Positions 54,042-63,461 of a DNA stretch of 64,000 nt are shown piece by piece. Both the position numbers and the translations under genes were made by a program. Numbering within the stretch: the stretch's first letter is position 1; the number at the start of each line of letters is the position of its first letter. The notes under the pieces were generated by a model. It was not told where the DNA came from, did no database searches, and worked only from the letters and a program-made list of their open reading frames with translations. The stretch covers positions 3,224,001 to 3,288,000 of the forward strand of contig CM030335.1 in assembly GCA_017654855.1 (NCBI GenBank), written 5' to 3'. The DNA comes from Podospora anserina (taxonomy: Eukaryota).

Positions 54042-54956
54042 CTACTTTGAATGCAATTTCTGTGCAGCTCCAACCGTCGTCTTGTTCGTCTTGCCAGCCT
54101 GGCGCAGGAAATACAGACTCAACGTAGTCATGACCACCATCAACGCCCAACGCTCGCCCAGCTCCCCTGTGCGACCAGCCTGTTTCAACTCCAACGTGAA
54201 TGGATGTTTCCAGTTCAGCACGTTGCTAAAGACCACCTTGGCGACAATCTGAACTTTACTCTCAGCCGCGGGCAACCATGAGGCGGAGGCTGCTGAGCGT
54301 GACGATCCCGCCTCGGATAAAGGTCGGCTAGTGTGACCAGGTGCAAGACGGTACAACGTGTACACAGTTCCCGTTTCAGCGTGCTCCTCCGCTTGGCCAC
54401 TCATGTTCTGGTTGTCGTTGCTGCTACCTCTGCTAATCTTCCGCCACTCAAACGCCTCCCTCATCATCCTCTTCACGCCGACCTCAATCTCGAACCCAAA
54501 GGCCACGCCATGCTCCTTGCTAGTGGTGGAGTGCACCACCTCGGTGATCATGTCGCGGGGATTCTTCTCCTGATATAGCGGGGGAAGCTTTACCGCCGTC
54601 TTTGGCCTGAAAAGCTGGACGAGAAGCGGCAGCGGAAACTCATCCCCCGTGGCAGCGAGTATGGGGCTCTTGAGGCTGGTTCCGTTGCGGAGGTAGTAAC
54701 CGGGTCCGAAGTGAAGGGGGCCGCGGGGAGTGAAGCCGAAGTGTGCCTCGACGAGGTAGAGAAAGTCGTCTTCGGTGGCACCGCAGAGCTTGAATGTCTT
54801 TAGCGCGTTGACTACTCCTGAGAAATTGCTGTGGAGATTCATTATGGATGGAAAGGGGCGGTATCCGATGAAGGCGGCACTGGTAGGGAGAAACGTCGAT
54901 GCCTGGTCGGAGTCAGCGCTCTCAGATGAGCGTTTTCCATTATCTGTGTTGGCCAT
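54042..54956 (-). CDS. Intronless fungal hypothetical protein (304 aa)
   Basis: Clean ORF with conserved-looking blocks LRNG..ILAA, F..EVG...REAFEWRK and ELGERWALMVVMT.L. Confidence 0.75.
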   Translation of the reverse strand: MANTDNGKRSSESADSDQASTFLPTSAAFIGYRPFPSIMNLHSNFSGVVNALKTFKLCGATEDDFLYLVEAHFGFTPRGPLHFGPGYYLRNGTSLKSPILAATGDEFPLPLLVQLFRPKTAVKLPPLYQEKNPRDMITEVVHSTTSKEHGVAFGFEIEVGVKRMMREAFEWRKISRGSSNDNQNMSGQAEEHAETGTVYTLYRLAPGHTSRPLSEAGSSRSAASASWLPAAESKVQIVAKVVFSNVLNWKHPFTLELKQAGRTGELGERWALMVVMTTLSLYFLRQAGKTNKTTVGAAQKLHSK

Positions 54957-56343
54957 GATGCTTGTGGCCGCCGAAGTGACCGCGTAACAAGAAATATCAG
55001 ATGATTAGGTGTTTTGTCGAGTGACCGGAATGTTAGGGCACACGGTCTCGGGAAGAGAAACTTGAAGTGAGCGATATAGCAGAGAAACAGCTTACGACGC
55101 CACAGCGAGAAAAATTGTTAGGGAAGCCATTGAGCAAAAGAAGCTGCCTAGACAACGGGGGAAAGGATGACCGAAGTGAGATAAGCTAGCTTACCTAGGT
55201 AGGTAGGTATGTATTGTGCCCCTGCCTGGAATGGCCTGACCTAGGATTTAGACGAGTAATTTGCTGCAGCTGGGAAGCCAACTGCATTATAAAGTAACCA
55301 TTAGGTGTTCCAACCAGGTCTGAAGAATGCGGTGAAACGGCGGGAAAGGAACGGCCTTACCCGGACATACGCACTGTGTCGGAGGCATATTGTTATGGTA
55401 TAGTGTAGATTGACAAAGCGCTGCACAGGAATAAAACCACTACGGCCCTGCAGGCCAGAATACAACCACCAGGGAGCAACCAGAATGGTAGCCCCACATC
55501 TCCTCAGGCACAGTATATACTGTGACACATATTGCATATCAACTGGGCGATGTGACTAATCTCCAGGCAACTACCTGCCTATATTCACTCTGGGCTGGAT
55601 GGAAAAAAGGTTTAGGAAAGGTCCTGTCCCCTTGTATGACTAACCGAGCCAGGTTAGGTTTCCGAGCCCAATAGGTAGGTACCTATCCAGCTGGTACCTA
55701 GCTCTTCGATCGAGTCTTTGCTACGGTGCCGGACCATTGTCACGGTGCGCGCGAAATCCCAGAGCTTGCGAAATGCTACCTAGGTGACTAAGGTAGGCAT
55801 ATTGATCGGTAGGCCATCATGTCGACTTGACTTCAACGCTGACTGAAGTAACTAACCGAAACAGAGAGGGGTGTCTAATACCAATTCATGGGTGATTTGA
55901 ACTTGGCATGTAACTGGATATTGTCGTCTGGACAGAAGAGAGATACCCAAAAGAGCTTACCAGTGAGATATCACGAAGAACACATAATCCATCTGCGCCA
56001 CTCACAAAAGCTTTGCCCCGGACAACCCCAACGCCACATACACCACCCACCAGCTGCCAACCCAAGCCAATCAACCATACACTCAGCCCAGCCCAACCCC
56101 ACTATACGATTCCAAGTCCCAAGTTAGCATTCCGTGGGCGCGGTAGTACAGCTGTTAGTGCATTCCCGAGTTCGAGCGAAGACCCAGGTTGACTCCTGGC
56201 CCGGCCACATAACGTCTGCTTGTTCTTCCAGCGTTGCTTTTTTGTATTTTCTTTTGCCCTGACACCACCTTGTCTGACTGTAACCATCTAATCTTATCCT
56301 ATTCATTTGCTCTGTTCAGCCCTGCTTCAAGAAAAAGCTCCGC

Positions 56344-57353
56344 TTAGTCTTTGACAGCGAAGATCTTATAAGATCCTGTAAATCATGTCAGCTACCGTGC
56401 TCTGGTCTCCTCTATACGCAAAAATGCTAACTTACCAACGAACTCATTGAGATCTGTCCTCCCCACATCACTGCTATCGGTAGTGGCAGAAGAACAAGAT
56501 GGCGTCGCTTTCTTGGCCTCATCCCCACCATCGCAAGCAGAAACAGCGGCAACAGGTCCACAACAATCCCCAGACTTTTTGGTCCCATCCTCTTTGGTGT
56601 CCAAATAGACATTCAGATCGGCCTGTGTATCCGTGATGACCGAGTCTTTGAACCCCGCCTCCCTGAACCAGTTCTGATAGTCGGCAACCTCGGCGGCACC
56701 GGCAATACATCCAACGTACATGGCAATATCCTTTCTCAGCTGATCCGGCAGGGGCTTCTTGGCAAGAATGTCCGACACGGCAACCCTTCCACCGGGCTTC
56801 AGAAGACGGTACATCTCCTTGAAGACATGATTCTTCTCTTCGTATGGGACCAGGTTGATCACGCAGTTTGAGATTATGAGGTCGGCAGTAACGTCTGGGA
56901 GAGGGACAGAGGTGATATTGCCTTTGATGAAGGTGACGTTGGAAACCGAGCTGCCGCGGGAGGCCTTGATCTTTTCGGCGCGGGCGAGCATTTCCTAGCA
57001 ACCTTGTCAGCGGTGTGTTGAGAGAACGCGGAAGTTGCCGGATAAGAACGGACATCATTGATGTCTACGCCAATGGCTCTTCCACTGGAACCAATCTTTG
57101 TCGAGGCGAGGAAGATGTCGAAGCCCGCACCGCTGCCTAGGTCGATGACCGTCTCACCCTCTTTGAGGCTGGTAATGGCAAGTGGATTGCCGCAACTGAG
57201 ACCCAGGTTGGCGTCTTCGGGGATGTTGGATAACTCGTCCTCGCTGTATCCGAATGACTTGGCCACACTCTCTCCGTACTTTGGGGCCGCCGTTCGAGAG
57301 GCACTGCTGTAGTGCTCCCGGACTTGGGCGTAGATCTGCTCGGTTGAATCCAT
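56344..57353 (-). CDS. arsM: Arsenite S-adenosylmethionine methyltransferase (ArsM/AS3MT); introns 57053-56995 and 56435-56376
   Basis: V.EHY, FGYSE..L..IP..ANLGLSCGNP, IDLGSGAGFD, DLIISNCVINL, YRLLKPGGR..SD, YVGCIAGA; ends GSYKIFAVKD*. Confidence 0.9.
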
Positions 57354-57532
57354 GCTTGGATGTTCAATAGAAGTTCATAAAAGGCAGGTCGTGTAGGACA
57401 ATCCGACAATATAGAGGCCGCTGTGAAGGCCAGACTACCTGGTGGTTCTGAGAAGTTGTTGTGCGAAACCTAAAGCTAGGATCAAAACCGGAGTCCTAGA
57501 AAAGGGTATTTATCTTTGTTGATCTACACTCT

Positions 57533-57539
57533 TTACTAA
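57533..57539. promoter_or_regulatory. Yap1-type response element TTACTAA in the arsM/bZIP divergent promoter
   Basis: Exact TTACTAA heptamer. A single 7-mer can occur by chance. Confidence 0.4.
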
Positions 57540-57793
57540 GCCTGATTCTCGTGAGGTGCATTTGATGTGCTGCGTGTTGTCGAGGTTTGAGTGGTATGTC
57601 ATTGAAAGTGGACCAGATATGGTTAGCGCGAGGTCCACTAGATGACGCGCCAGCCCAATGTGGAAAAGATTTGGTTTGTCACCAGAATCTTGCCCAGTGC
57701 TCTCCCGTCCTCACCAATTCCCTTCATCTGCCTCGTCTAGATCTGTACCAACCTGGCTTCGCTCCCGATATTTGACCCTGATTGCCTGCAAAC

Positions 57794-58414
57794 ATGCCAC
57801 GCCAGCCTACATTTCAAAGCAGTATCACCAAATTTTCAGCCAAACCTCCAGGCCACGACGCGGCGCGCCAGCGAGAGAACCAGCGACGTCATCGTGCCAG
57901 AGTCAAAGGGCGTATATGTGATTTGGAGGCCACATTGGCCAGTACCCAAAGCAAACTAGACGATGCGCTGAAGCAGATCGAGGAGCTCCATGCCGAAATC
58001 TCCCGACTACGTGCTCTCCAGCCTCCCACCCTCCAAGCCAACGAAACGTCAAGCTTGATCACCTGTCACGCTGGCGTCGATTCATCAGACATCCAAGAGA
58101 GCCTTAATGATATCGACGATGTCCCAGAGCCGATGCCGGACAGTCCTATGCCGGCGTCACCCCAATCTACCGCCGCCATTGAAGACTCGAATAACGATGG
58201 CCCTCTTCTTCCCCCAACACATCCTGATGAATCAACCATTACCTGTCGTGACGCCTATGCTATAATAATGGACCGGAACACATCAGACTTAGACTCGGAG
58301 ACGATGAACCAATGGCTTAAACCCGGATTTCGGCGAGCTGCAGTCCCTGGATCTGGCTGTCGGATCGAAACACATGTCTTGTTTGCCTTTATTGACCACA
58401 TCACATCAACCTGA
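57794..58414 (+). CDS. bZIP-like transcription factor with a C-terminal two-Cys domain
   Basis: Basic region ARQRENQRRHRARVK, heptad Leu zipper (LEATLAS..L..I..L..I..L), C-terminal TITCRDAY..WL.PGF..GCRIE..LF..ID. Confidence 0.8.
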   Translation: MPRQPTFQSSITKFSAKPPGHDAARQRENQRRHRARVKGRICDLEATLASTQSKLDDALKQIEELHAEISRLRALQPPTLQANETSSLITCHAGVDSSDIQESLNDIDDVPEPMPDSPMPASPQSTAAIEDSNNDGPLLPPTHPDESTITCRDAYAIIMDRNTSDLDSETMNQWLKPGFRRAAVPGSGCRIETHVLFAFIDHITST

Positions 58415-58587
58415 GACACGACTACAAAAGAATGGTGTCGGTTCAAATCTCATAATTATGCACGACAATCACATGCCAGCCTGCAATTGGCCAACGAGCA
58501 GAAGCACCTGGGGTGGGGCTCAACATCAACCTTCAGAATTTACCTCGCGTGATCTTCCCGGTTGCACCGCATACAACAACTACCAGA

Positions 58588-59040
58588 ATGACACACTTCA
58601 ACCATCTAGGTCACATCTCTATCGGGGTGCGTGACTACGTTGTCTCCCGGGCCTTTTACACGGCGGTTCTGGCGCCTCTCGGCCTCCGACTCGTGTACGA
58701 CAGCGGACCTGTTTCCGACCCATCCACCGGCAAAGTCCGAACACTTGGGTACGGCCCGGACGAAGAGCATGAGCTTCTTAACATCTTCGAGCACCAGGAC
58801 GCCGCCACCCCGGGACCGGGGTTCCACATCGCCTTCAATGCGCCGACCAGACAAGCTGTCGTCGATTTTCATGCGAAAGCAATCGAGTTTGGGGGCACTG
58901 ACAATGGGACACCTGGAGTGAGGGAGCACTATGGGAGGAATTATTTCGCTGCCTTTGTCGTTGATCCAGATGGTTGGAGGCTGGAAGCCGTTTGCAAGGT
59001 TCCCCTTGAGCAAGAAGAGCCTTCTGAGACAAGACGTTAG
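58588..59040 (+). CDS. VOC-superfamily (glyoxalase/bleomycin-resistance/dioxygenase) protein, intronless
   Basis: GHISIGVRD..S.AFY..L.PLG, FHIAF.A, GG.DNG.PG.R..Y..NYFAAFVVDPDGWRLEAV; His/His/Glu are the likely metal ligands. Confidence 0.9.
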   Translation: MTHFNHLGHISIGVRDYVVSRAFYTAVLAPLGLRLVYDSGPVSDPSTGKVRTLGYGPDEEHELLNIFEHQDAATPGPGFHIAFNAPTRQAVVDFHAKAIEFGGTDNGTPGVREHYGRNYFAAFVVDPDGWRLEAVCKVPLEQEEPSETRR

Positions 59041-59929: not shown

Positions 59930-60807
59930 ATGAAGGTCTCCACCCTCCTCTTCGCCGCGGCCAGCATGGCCCAAGCCTCCAGCCTCATCCCCCGCCAGCG
60001 AGCCTCCCTCTGCGAGCTCTACGCCTACTGGTCCGGCAACGGCTACGAGCTCCTCAACAACCTCTGGGGCAAAGACACGGCCACCTCTGGCTCCCAGTGC
60101 ACCTACCTCAACGGCGCCTCCAACAACGGCATCTCGTGGTCCACAACCTGGACTTGGCAGGGCGCTCCCGACAACGTCAAGAGCTACCCTTACTCGGGCA
60201 GGCAGGTTGCCAAGGGGAGGAAGATCAGCTCCATCAACAAGATGCCGACGAGCGTCACGTGGAGGTACGACAATGAGAATGTGAGGGCGAATGTGGCATA
60301 TGATGTCTTCACGGCGGCGGATCCGGATCATCCTAATTACGGGGGGGATTATGAGTTGATGATTTGGTGAGTGCTTTTTCCCTGGACAGCTAATTGTTGG
60401 TGGGATCATGCTGACAAGAGGCGGGGGGCGACTGCGTAGGTTGGCAAGATATGGGAATGTTTATCCCATTGGTACCAAGGAGCGGACCGTCACCCTTGCT
60501 GGGAGGTCTTGGGACTTGTGGGTGGGGTGGAACGGGGCTATGAGGGTGTACAGCTTTGTTGTTCCCTCGGGGACGGTCAAGAGCTTTAGCGCTGATGTGA
60601 AGGAATTCTTCCGGTATTTGGAGAGCAATTACCAGTACCCGTCCAGTCAGCAGAACTTGATTGGTGAGTCCTGCACTATCTCCACGGCGAGGGGTGATGA
60701 TTGGTTTACTGACTTTTGCTTGTGTAGTGTACCAAGTCGGCACTGAGGCCTTTACTGGTGGTCCGGCGACTTTTACTGTCGATAACTTCTCTGCTGACTT
60801 GCAGTAG
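59930..60807 (+). CDS. Secreted GH12 endoglucanase/xyloglucanase; introns 60367-60439 and 60664-60727
   Basis: Signal peptide, NNLWG, VKSYP, ANVAYDVFT, YELMIWL, QVGTEAFTG. Confidence 0.95.
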
Positions 60808-61998: not shown

Positions 61999-63045
61999 TC
62001 AGACCTCTACAACCCTCTCAGGGTCGAAGCCTGGCGACATGCCTTTACCGGCAACGAAACCGTACCCCTTTTGGTTCGTACACACTCTCTTCCCATCTAC
62101 CGAAAAATCACAGTTAAAATGCGTATGCCCAAACGCCCAGACCTTCACCCTGTCACTCCTCCAACACTTCTCACGGCTCAGGTCCGTCCTAAACGCACTC
62201 GCCACTGCCTCCCATCCCTTCACACGCTCATGCTGAGCATCATTAGCCCTCCGATCCGTCGTTGGGCTGTGATGAGTGAAAATAACCACCTTCCTTTTCT
62301 TCCCCTCCTTCGCGTCCTCCTTCTCAATTTTCTTCACCTCTTTATTAAGCCAGTCTTTATCTGCCTCGTGCGCTTTATTATGGTCCTTCACGGTCCACCC
62401 TTTGATCCTATAAAAGTCATTCAACTTTCTCGTCACCTCGTCCTTGTACTTGGATGCCACATAAGAGTGGAGGGTACACCCCAGCACAGTCACAACCCCC
62501 CCTTCCTCACCCTTGATATCATATCTCGTCCTATCAAGCGGGACAAAGTCTCCCAGCTTCTCCCCTTCTTTCCTCCTCTGCTCCACCAAAACCGACATCT
62601 CCTCCAAAAACAAACTAACCTCCTCCCAAGAGGAGGAATATGGCTCGTGATTTCCCGCAACAAAAAACACAACTTTGAACTTGCCAAGTTGGATAAGAAG
62701 GAATTTCCTCAAAGCATCGCGTTGGGTTATGAGGCCGATGTCGCCGAGTAGGGCGAGGTAAGGCGCGCGGGGTTCAACGTGGAAGGCAGAGTAGCCATGC
62801 TCTGCGAATTGCTCGGCGGGTGAGACCTCCAGGTGCAAGTCGGACAGGATTTGGAATTTGGCCATGTTGATGTTGATGGGGGGTTGTTGGGCACTGGAGG
62901 AGGATGATGAGAGCTGCAGTGGTTGGAAGACCTCTCTTGGCTGAAGCAGACTGCCCCACCCCACGTGGACGGGACGCCAAGAGCTGTGCTTGCACGGTAT
63001 GGCCTGTCTCCACAGCGACCTTGTCGCCGTGGAAAAGGAGGTCAT
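61999..63045 (-). CDS. Calcineurin-like metallophosphoesterase (second possible start at 62865)
   Basis: ILSDLHLE, LLGDIG, GNHEPY, GCTL.S, THHSP, WAFGHTH, TNQKGY. Confidence 0.9.
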   Translation of the reverse strand: MTSFSTATRSLWRQAIPCKHSSWRPVHVGWGSLLQPREVFQPLQLSSSSSSAQQPPININMAKFQILSDLHLEVSPAEQFAEHGYSAFHVEPRAPYLALLGDIGLITQRDALRKFLLIQLGKFKVVFFVAGNHEPYSSSWEEVSLFLEEMSVLVEQRRKEGEKLGDFVPLDRTRYDIKGEEGGVVTVLGCTLHSYVASKYKDEVTRKLNDFYRIKGWTVKDHNKAHEADKDWLNKEVKKIEKEDAKEGKKRKVVIFTHHSPTTDRRANDAQHERVKGWEAVASAFRTDLSREKCWRSDRVKVWAFGHTHFNCDFSVDGKRVCTNQKGYGFVAGKGMSPGFDPERVVEV

Positions 63046-63461
63046 GATGTTGGGTTGGTTTATGGGTTATTGCGACGTTAGTGGGGGTTGTTTTCGGCGG
63101 TGTATGAATGAGAGAGGAAAGAAAACAGAAACTCTTATGGTGGGTTCAAATTCTTTTGGGTTGCGAACAAATCGATCGATCCAATGTTGGTACCTACCTG
63201 ACAAGAGAGACTGTTGGCTCAACCATTACCCACTTCTCCATCAAACCGTGAAGTGCGTTACATGAAAGAGGAAAGAAGCATCTTCCATAAAACCCTGGAA
63301 TCTGAATTTTCATATCAAAATCGTTATACTTGCGCCACAGAAGCCCACGGTTAAGTTCCCCACCGTAACTTCCACAATACCTTACTTCTCGTTCGGTCCC
63401 AAACGCTCACTCATCAAACCCTTCTCATTATTTAGGCGAGTAAACACCTCGGACCCTCACA

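Follow-up and report, generated by a model that had tools for sequence, protein, structure and literature searches.

Filamentous fungi methylate and volatilise arsenic in soils. The bZIP factor Yap8 (Arr1) of Saccharomyces cerevisiae, encoded beside ACR2 and ACR3 at a divergent promoter and acting through a narrow, non-standard site, is described as binding arsenic through C132, C137 and C274, as carrying Leu26 in place of the invariant asparagine of bZIP proteins, and as limited to a few yeasts (PMC6545440). In filamentous fungi, an accessory bZIP (ENOG503PUQW) found in the arsH-arsC-arsB(-arsM) clusters of Penicillium/Aspergillus Starships has been proposed to be Yap8-like (PMC12256816, Table S3.3), and two unnamed bZIPs are reported as arsenic-induced in Cladosporium (PMC12112881); our literature search, outside which most subscription papers lay, found no characterised arsenic-specific regulator or site for these fungi. 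Here we describe a locus in a window of 64,000 nucleotides from Podospora anserina (contig CM030335.1, positions 3,224,001 to 3,288,000 of the forward strand), where arsM diverges from a small bZIP gene that is followed by a gene of the VOC/glyoxalase superfamily. We consider it likely that the bZIP is a dedicated sensor of trivalent arsenic, As(III), or of its methylated form, MAs(III), which would activate its own gene, arsM, acr3, arsH and an Acr2-like gene through the site RTGACAWAY, together with the CCAAT-binding complex or Mcm1.

As with Yap8, the bZIP gene of the window stands beside an arsenic gene at a divergent promoter, the site appears to be narrow and non-standard, a residue other than asparagine occupies the invariant position (Gln, Val, Leu or Ile) and a cysteine-based sensor is predicted. 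Unlike Yap8, the site is RTGACAWAY rather than TGATTAATAATCA, the basic region reads RxRxNQRRHR, the gene is tied to arsM and not to ACR3, the targets are mostly unlinked, and the spacing to CCAAT or Mcm1-type boxes is fixed. ENOG503PUQW, comparable by its description, likewise lies within a fungal arsenic cluster. A first-pass annotation of the window had claimed three genes within 2.7 kb, with arsM divergent from the bZIP gene over 440 bp and an intronless VOC gene 173 bp after the latter, and gene models and open reading frame (ORF) coordinates bear out each of these points. The features are as follows.

56344..57353, minus strand: arsM, predicted As(III) S-adenosylmethionine methyltransferase gene, 296 aa, two introns (gene model, family match, PDB ArsM alignments, spliced contigs)
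57354..57793, no strand: divergent promoter common to arsM and the bZIP gene, 440 bp
57533..57539, plus strand: TTACTAA, unconserved and probably a chance occurrence
57594..57602, minus strand: site B, ATGACATAC (RTGACAWAY), arsM-proximal
57610..57625, no strand: Mcm1/CArG-type box B, with its CC-N6-GG core at 57613-57622, 10 nt from site B
57651..57666, no strand: Mcm1/CArG-type box A, with its CC-N6-GG core at 57654-57663, 10 nt from site A; includes a CCAAT
57674..57682, minus strand: site A, GTGACAAAC (RTGACAWAY), bZIP-proximal
57794..58414, plus strand: bZIP gene, intronless, 206 aa
58588..59040, plus strand: VOC/glyoxalase-superfamily gene, intronless, 150 aa

The arsM-bZIP pair and its promoter site

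A profile of 32 bZIP homologues gave 526 representatives at E<=0.001, and a scan of metagenome contigs retained 57 loci out of 295 pattern matches; clustered at 80% bZIP identity, these loci form 29 groups. In 20 of the 29, arsM is no more than 3.4 kb away from the bZIP gene (16 divergent, 4 tandem), and eight of the nine groups that have no arsM nearby hold less than 1 kb of DNA on one side. Also found near the bZIP gene are acr3 (three groups), arsH (two), the Acr2-like gene (three) and a second bZIP (four). A quick tree of 59 rows, confined to the bZIP family, separates a clade containing the named Sordariomycetes from one containing the named Dothideomycetes and one Onygenales species, and linkage to arsM is present in both of these main clades.

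The promoters of linked arsM genes share a sequence signal. Within a motif set of 23 arsM promoters (the window plus 22 loci, many of them from related Chaetomiaceae), TGACATA occurs in 18, against 2.2 expected, and RTGACANAY has 38 sites distributed over all 23 promoters, 37 of them in the same orientation. The conserved site can be written RTGACAWAY, with TGACATA as its commonest form and a conserved YC flank. It is found no more than 400 nt upstream of the bZIP start codon in 27 of the 29 groups, the two misses holding just 190 and 4 nt of upstream DNA, and in bZIP-upstream DNA unused in motif finding it occurs in 12 of 14 groups, compared with 15 of 255 background tiles. Because the 9-mer is found at the bZIP gene also in loci where arsM lies downstream or elsewhere, the bZIP would seem to regulate its own expression. 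The self-regulated unit proposed by the first-pass annotation is thus supported for arsM and the bZIP gene, as a conserved and probably autoregulated pair, both by linkage and by the site upstream of the bZIP gene. L019 (3350-3500) and L040 (1072-1200) carry, some 2.6 kb upstream of their intact bZIP gene, a second copy of its 5' part that soon runs into a stop, and the upstream DNA of these two loci contains neither arsM nor a strong site.

The same annotation had taken TTACTAA for the operator. The word is indeed present between arsM and the bZIP gene, but it is found in 2 of the 23 arsM promoters and appears in 6% of shuffled versions of the 440 bp (some YRE-like word does so in 30%), and we reject it in this role. 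No Yap8-type sequence (TGATT..AATCA or its full form) was found in the divergent promoter or in 9.9 kb around acr3 and arsH.

As the annotation had noted, acr3 and arsH are outside the window; family searches of the tblastn type place them on contigs C1 and C6, respectively. A matrix built from arsM promoters alone nevertheless finds two sites ahead of acr3 and one with a top score ahead of arsH, at a distance of about 160-230 bp; both genes have a CCAAT spaced 12 nt from the 9-mer. The composite CCAAT-N12-RTGACAWWY has seven matches in 36 Mb (control 2). Two precede acr3 and one arsH, three fall inside other ORFs or at their ends, and one stands immediately upstream of a rhodanese/Cdc25-type gene (locus L073), this last being the only blind one of the four arsenic-type matches, because the pattern was designed on acr3 and arsH. 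The L073 protein has a C-X5-R motif whose CGSSTGR aligns with Cdc25A (E 0.019), and PF00581 is found on a full-length relative (P0249). Relatives of the gene adjoin the bZIP gene in 9 of the 57 loci and cluster with the bZIP gene and acr3 in three groups; in an arsenic Starship of Botrytis, too, a rhodanese-domain gene beside Acr3 has been described (10.64898/2026.05.30.728154). Searches for the Acr2-like gene by single exons returned either nothing or weak matches. The CCAAT spacing recurs in L014, L016, L017 and L024. What is new in this analysis is that RTGACAWAY marks a predicted unlinked regulon composed of acr3, arsH and the Acr2-like gene.

Some side observations concern these targets. 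The Acr2-like gene (L073:1608-1709) and arsH (L011:4399-4465) have in-frame upstream ATGs opening Arg/Ser-rich leaders which, by eye, resemble mitochondrial presequences. In this genome acr3 is divergent from a P450-reductase fusion-like gene (L010:1-3400), and P450 genes flank the bZIP gene in three further groups (L015, L016 and L038).

At arsM and bZIP promoters of Sordariomycetes, a CC-N6-GG box lies beside the 9-mer, on one side or the other, at a distance of exactly 10 nt. Around 37 sites, CC-N6-GG occurs 13 times at one offset, 12 times at the mirror offset and at most once at any other; when each group is represented by a single locus (the window and 27 groups, the remaining two having too little upstream DNA to be included), the 47 sites show the strict form 12 times at each of the two mirrored offsets, with a mean of 0.12 elsewhere. 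This symmetric spacing suggests a dyad at the central C, as in the AP-1 site. When the 25 boxes, chosen on their CC..GG core, are compared with the 16-bp Mcm1 consensus TTnCCnnnTnnGGnAA as given in PMC5880240, one flanking T is present in 20 and another T in 21, the central T in 18 and the final A in 22. The flanks thus match the Mcm1/SRF CArG consensus, Mcm1 being the putative occupant, and the genome encodes an Mcm1-like gene. Of the Sordariomycete-clade promoters, 15 of 17 contain a strict box, and the proteins of this clade have an aromatic residue ahead of the basic region; none of the 11 promoters of the other clade has such a box. As this is a single phylogenetic contrast, the association between box and residue is a lead only.

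Genome scans with two Mcm1-type composite patterns returned 14 (control 4) and 7 (control 2) matches, two of which lie in the promoter studied here; around the 19 others, reading of the translated ORFs, with no family scan, recognised no arsenic gene. A stricter pattern gave one genome match and one control match. Our literature search found no MADS-bZIP composite element in fungi, and no paper was found for the motif words. Paired composites of the 9-mer and CC-N6-GG also occur in L022 (5605-5750), L023 (5211-5343), L024 (4046-4176) and L025 (3785-3927), near the Acr2-like gene and a flavin-monooxygenase-like gene, and represent possible extra members of the regulon.

The bZIP and ArsM proteins

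The bZIP protein, identical (100%) to the N-terminal part of the P. anserina record PODANS_4_6030, has a K-F motif at residues 13-14, an atypical basic region (RxRxNQRRHR, 25-34), a zipper to about residue 75 and a disordered linker. Pfam gives no bZIP call on it, and 12 and 11 of 124 family members match bZIP_1 and bZIP_2, respectively, in both cases weakly. Searched against PDB sequences, the family profile matches HapX best (7AW7, E 3.6e-4), in an alignment that spans the basic region and zipper only. According to this alignment, the position of Gcn4 Ala239 is Gln (Q30), as in the Yap family, and the final Arg is kept; the other Yap signature positions are not matched, with His33 at 242, Arg25 at 234, Arg32 at 241 and Gln26 at 235. 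Gln26 occupies the invariant-Asn position, which holds Val, Leu or Ile in most distant homologues. A single-protein search of this genome found no paralogue of the bZIP.

In the AlphaFold2 model, a long helix (21-75) and the disordered linker are followed by a compact domain (148-205) of beta-alpha-alpha-beta-beta-alpha topology, with C151 at the end of one strand and C189 at the start of the last one, so placed that the two cysteines may face each other. The C-terminal cysteine pair pointed out by the first-pass annotation is close to invariant: of the 204 homologues tallied, all have C151 and 203 have C189. The linkers are also rich in cysteine, with CC pairs in 56 of the 204. The annotation's view of the domain as non-Yap-type is probably wrong, because three methods, whose scores all lie below the tools' confident range, agree on Yap1/PAP1: Foldseek ranks the Yap1 redox domain first for both domain models (E 0.15 and 0.32), VIA has Yap1 tied for first with unrelated folds (Z 4.7, rmsd 3.4, 60 aligned, 17% identity; model residues 24-86 to Yap1 589-650, PDB 1SSE), and the ESM features are nearest to PAP1 clusters (0.92, 183/256 features, cluster 60% PAP1). 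The Pfam PAP1 family was not among the 25 families listed for 124 members. In comparison with the C-terminal cysteine-rich domain of Yap1/Pap1 (PF08601), the predicted topology is the same, whereas sequence identity is low and the family studied here has two invariant cysteines only.

The arsM gene starts at 57353 and comprises three exons (57353-57054, 56994-56436 and 56375-56344) separated by introns at 57053-56995 and 56435-56376. RNA-like contigs, from runs not on record as RNA, lack intron 2 in all four runs and intron 1 in two of the four. Both exons, scanned separately against a whole-protein cut-off of 263, match PRK11873 best among the NCBIfam families, at 101 and 149 bits, and the best PDB matches are ArsM structures. 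C54, C144 and C196 align with C72, C174 and C224 of CmArsM, which are presented as an ArsM feature in PMC5552862. There is no cysteine before residue 54 and hence no equivalent of C44, required for the first methylation by CmArsM according to PMC6138428. The tail is rich in cysteine (C244-C245, C254 and C267; window 56460-56630, minus strand), and its CC pair and two further cysteines might replace the missing C44 or hand over As(III). By family and by its three cysteines, the product belongs to ArsM/AS3MT, and methylating activity is predicted. One three-Cys ArsM of Aspergillus reportedly prefers MAs(III).

Beyond the 3' end of arsM, within its long 3' untranslated region, a tRNA-like stretch on the opposite strand (56138-56215), missed by ARAGORN, is probably a tRNA relic; contigs from elsewhere match 56140-56182 and continue with similar letters. 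The remaining neighbours in the window are an ORF of 304 aa with no Pfam match (54045-54956, minus strand), a GH12 glucanase (59931-60788, plus strand) and a metallophosphoesterase (62002-63066, minus strand), none of which was found in the 57 homologous loci.

A proposed arsenic switch and its rivals

Our best reading of these sequence data is an As(III)-sensing bZIP that resembles Yap8 but is separate from it, with the CCAAT complex or MADS partners as probable helpers. Linkage, site, spacing and the conservation of the cysteines are read from the sequences themselves, whereas binding, sensing, activation and partner contacts are steps that we infer. A bZIP dimer, alone or with a paralogous bZIP, would bind the 9-mer with AP-1 geometry, and a neighbouring DNA-bending factor would stabilise it, namely the CCAAT-binding complex at acr3, arsH and acr2, and Mcm1 at arsM and the bZIP gene. 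As(III) or MAs(III) would bind to C151 and C189 together with a third thiol, contributed by the Cys-rich linker or by the partner subunit, and the loaded protein would switch on transcription, with positive autoregulation. The output would be reduction of As(V) by the Acr2-like protein, efflux of As(III) by Acr3, methylation by ArsM and oxidation of MAs(III) by ArsH. The arrangement recalls HapX (and Yap5/Yap7) with the CCAAT-binding complex, where, as described, the spacing between CCAAT and the bZIP half-site is fixed, with 12 nt to a sub-motif; it differs in that the window bZIP has no Hap4L motif recognisable by eye, in that its presumed targets are arsenic and not iron genes, and in the second, Mcm1-type geometry.

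An extended version of this model, in our view doubtful though possible, would make the bZIP a sensor common to the Pezizomycotina, in which a Yap1-type redox domain was rewired to a two-Cys metalloid site and a weak binder is docked by the CCAAT complex (12 nt) or by Mcm1 (10 nt, either side), with the N-terminal K-F/W, which is confined to the clade that carries the Mcm1-type boxes, as a MADS-docking strand.

Several observations weigh against the As(III)-sensing bZIP and its regulon. Locus L058 has no arsM despite more than 7 kb on both sides, and L019, L037 and L040 have none within 3.7-6 kb upstream, although L027, of the same group, does. No above-threshold site precedes acr3 in L048 or arsH in L015. 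The Chaetomiaceae bias of the motif set and the design of the CCAAT pattern on acr3 and arsH have been mentioned, as have the low fold scores, and the Acr2-like arsenate reductase is a putative assignment from motif and neighbourhood. A third cysteine of the family (C136) is present in 60 of 75 near and 77 of 129 far homologues and is Gly in the window protein. By eye, the N-terminus offers only K-F/W-x-x-K-P where a Hap4L motif might be sought. Finally, Yap1 could read site A, because TGACAAA is a listed variant of the Yap1 element.

An obligate heterodimer of this bZIP with a paralogous RIRDNQRRSRAR-type bZIP (RxRxNQRRSRAR), unlikely in our estimate, would be compatible with most of the explanation we favour and would account for an asymmetric site with 37 of 38 copies in the same direction. 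Such a second bZIP does occur in arsenic clusters beside the Acr2-like gene, 1.3-3.8 kb from the first in 4 of the 29 groups (L014:2179-2919, L016:6025-6771, L024:5060-5947 and L025:5372-5620), and the full-length copies in L014 and L016 have a similar C-terminal cysteine pair and a CC in the linker, which makes them candidate partners. Yet the paralogue was unseen in 25 of 29 groups, many of whose contigs are short, and the nearest match in this genome (L103:4541-4880, G000:C4), the sole similar gene found, is unlinked, with no site upstream and no clear C-terminal cysteine domain.

We regard as decidedly unlikely that the 9-mer is read by a general factor, either the Yap1/NapA orthologue or, at CCAAT composites, HapX, with the local bZIP as a target or modulator. 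T(T/G)ACAAA is given as a Yap1 element in PMC6545440, HapX is described as reading a TGAn half-site beside CCAAT with RWT 12 bp downstream (bioRxiv 10.1101/2021.07.15.452465), and HapX is also the closest PDB sequence to the bZIP family. However, the commonest form, TGACATA with its conserved YC flank, is not a listed Yap1 element; the 11-mer RTGACAWAYCR is not enriched genome-wide (223 matches against 336 for a reversed control); the CCAAT composite is rare and has RTG, not RWT, at +12; and the bZIP gene keeps the site where arsM is no longer its neighbour.

About as unlikely is a bZIP that senses another signal (oxidants, electrophiles, Sb(III) or thiol depletion) and controls arsenic genes indirectly, or that acts as a released repressor. 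The Yap1 domain whose fold it appears to share is a redox sensor, and just two of the cysteines are invariant. On the other side, all recognised targets are arsenic-handling genes, and Cys-rich linkers with CC pairs follow the pattern of the As(III) sites of ArsR and ArsI, where such pairs are reported (PMC12607644).

The VOC neighbour and the meaning of the proposed switch

The third gene of the locus had been read as an ArsI-like member of an arsenic module. Its product belongs to PF00903 and to the generic glyoxalase superfamily (best PDB match 4z04, E 3.6e-22), and ArsI was absent among its 11 PDB matches (E<=1) and 6 NCBIfam matches (E<=0.1). It shares the VOC fold and a similar length with the bacterial C-As lyase ArsI, but the closest structures are uncharacterised glyoxalase-superfamily proteins, and the vicinal cysteine pair that ArsI requires according to PMC12607644 and PMC6138428 is missing: there is a single Cys136, and the same holds for 8 of 8 homologous VOC domains. 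We therefore reject an identity as ArsI, which these sequence comparisons do not support. The conserved neighbourhood, which the first-pass annotation had put forward as a check, holds for arsM and the bZIP gene and fails for VOC: among the 22 groups that have 1 kb or more of downstream DNA, just 2, each of them Sordariales-like, have it after the bZIP gene. VOC is also absent at all acr3/arsH loci, save for a remnant of 24 residues in L025; no RTGACAWAY site lies upstream of it, and a single-protein search of this genome found no paralogue. It looks like a lineage-limited neighbour, adjacent to the bZIP gene in Sordariales only, with a function of its own, a bystander. A three-gene module in which the bZIP acts via TTACTAA and an ArsI-like VOC handles methylarsenicals is therefore highly improbable, its support being the position of VOC after the bZIP gene in the two metagenome groups and in eight named Sordariales genomes (as judged from fused models), together with possible read-through of the two genes.

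In those eight database models, which include PODANS_4_6030, the bZIP and VOC are fused. The linkers differ from model to model, the join removes the conserved last helix of the bZIP with Asp201, and no bZIP-VOC splice joint was found in 4 runs, which makes a genuine fusion protein improbable. Because the conserved helix is cut and no joint was seen, the fused models are probably annotation errors, and our data suggest that the public model PODANS_4_6030 and the seven similar ones wrongly join two genes. One unspliced contig covers both genes, so that read-through is possible; since contigs drop rare forms, a minor spliced bZIP-VOC form may also exist.

The arsM-bZIP pair is stronger than the first-pass annotation could see, and its readings of the operator, of the type of cysteine domain and of VOC were probably wrong. 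Returning to the proposed As(III)-sensing bZIP, it is probably a main arsenic switch of filamentous fungi, because one and the same signal precedes arsM, the bZIP gene and the scattered genes for pump, reductase and oxidase. The analysis gives a named candidate regulator, a 9-bp site and four putative target genes in a laboratory fungus, P. anserina, and the site could be of use in searching for more arsenic genes and in designing a fungal biosensor. If true, the composite spacing would give both the Mcm1 system and the CCAAT-complex system a new partner.

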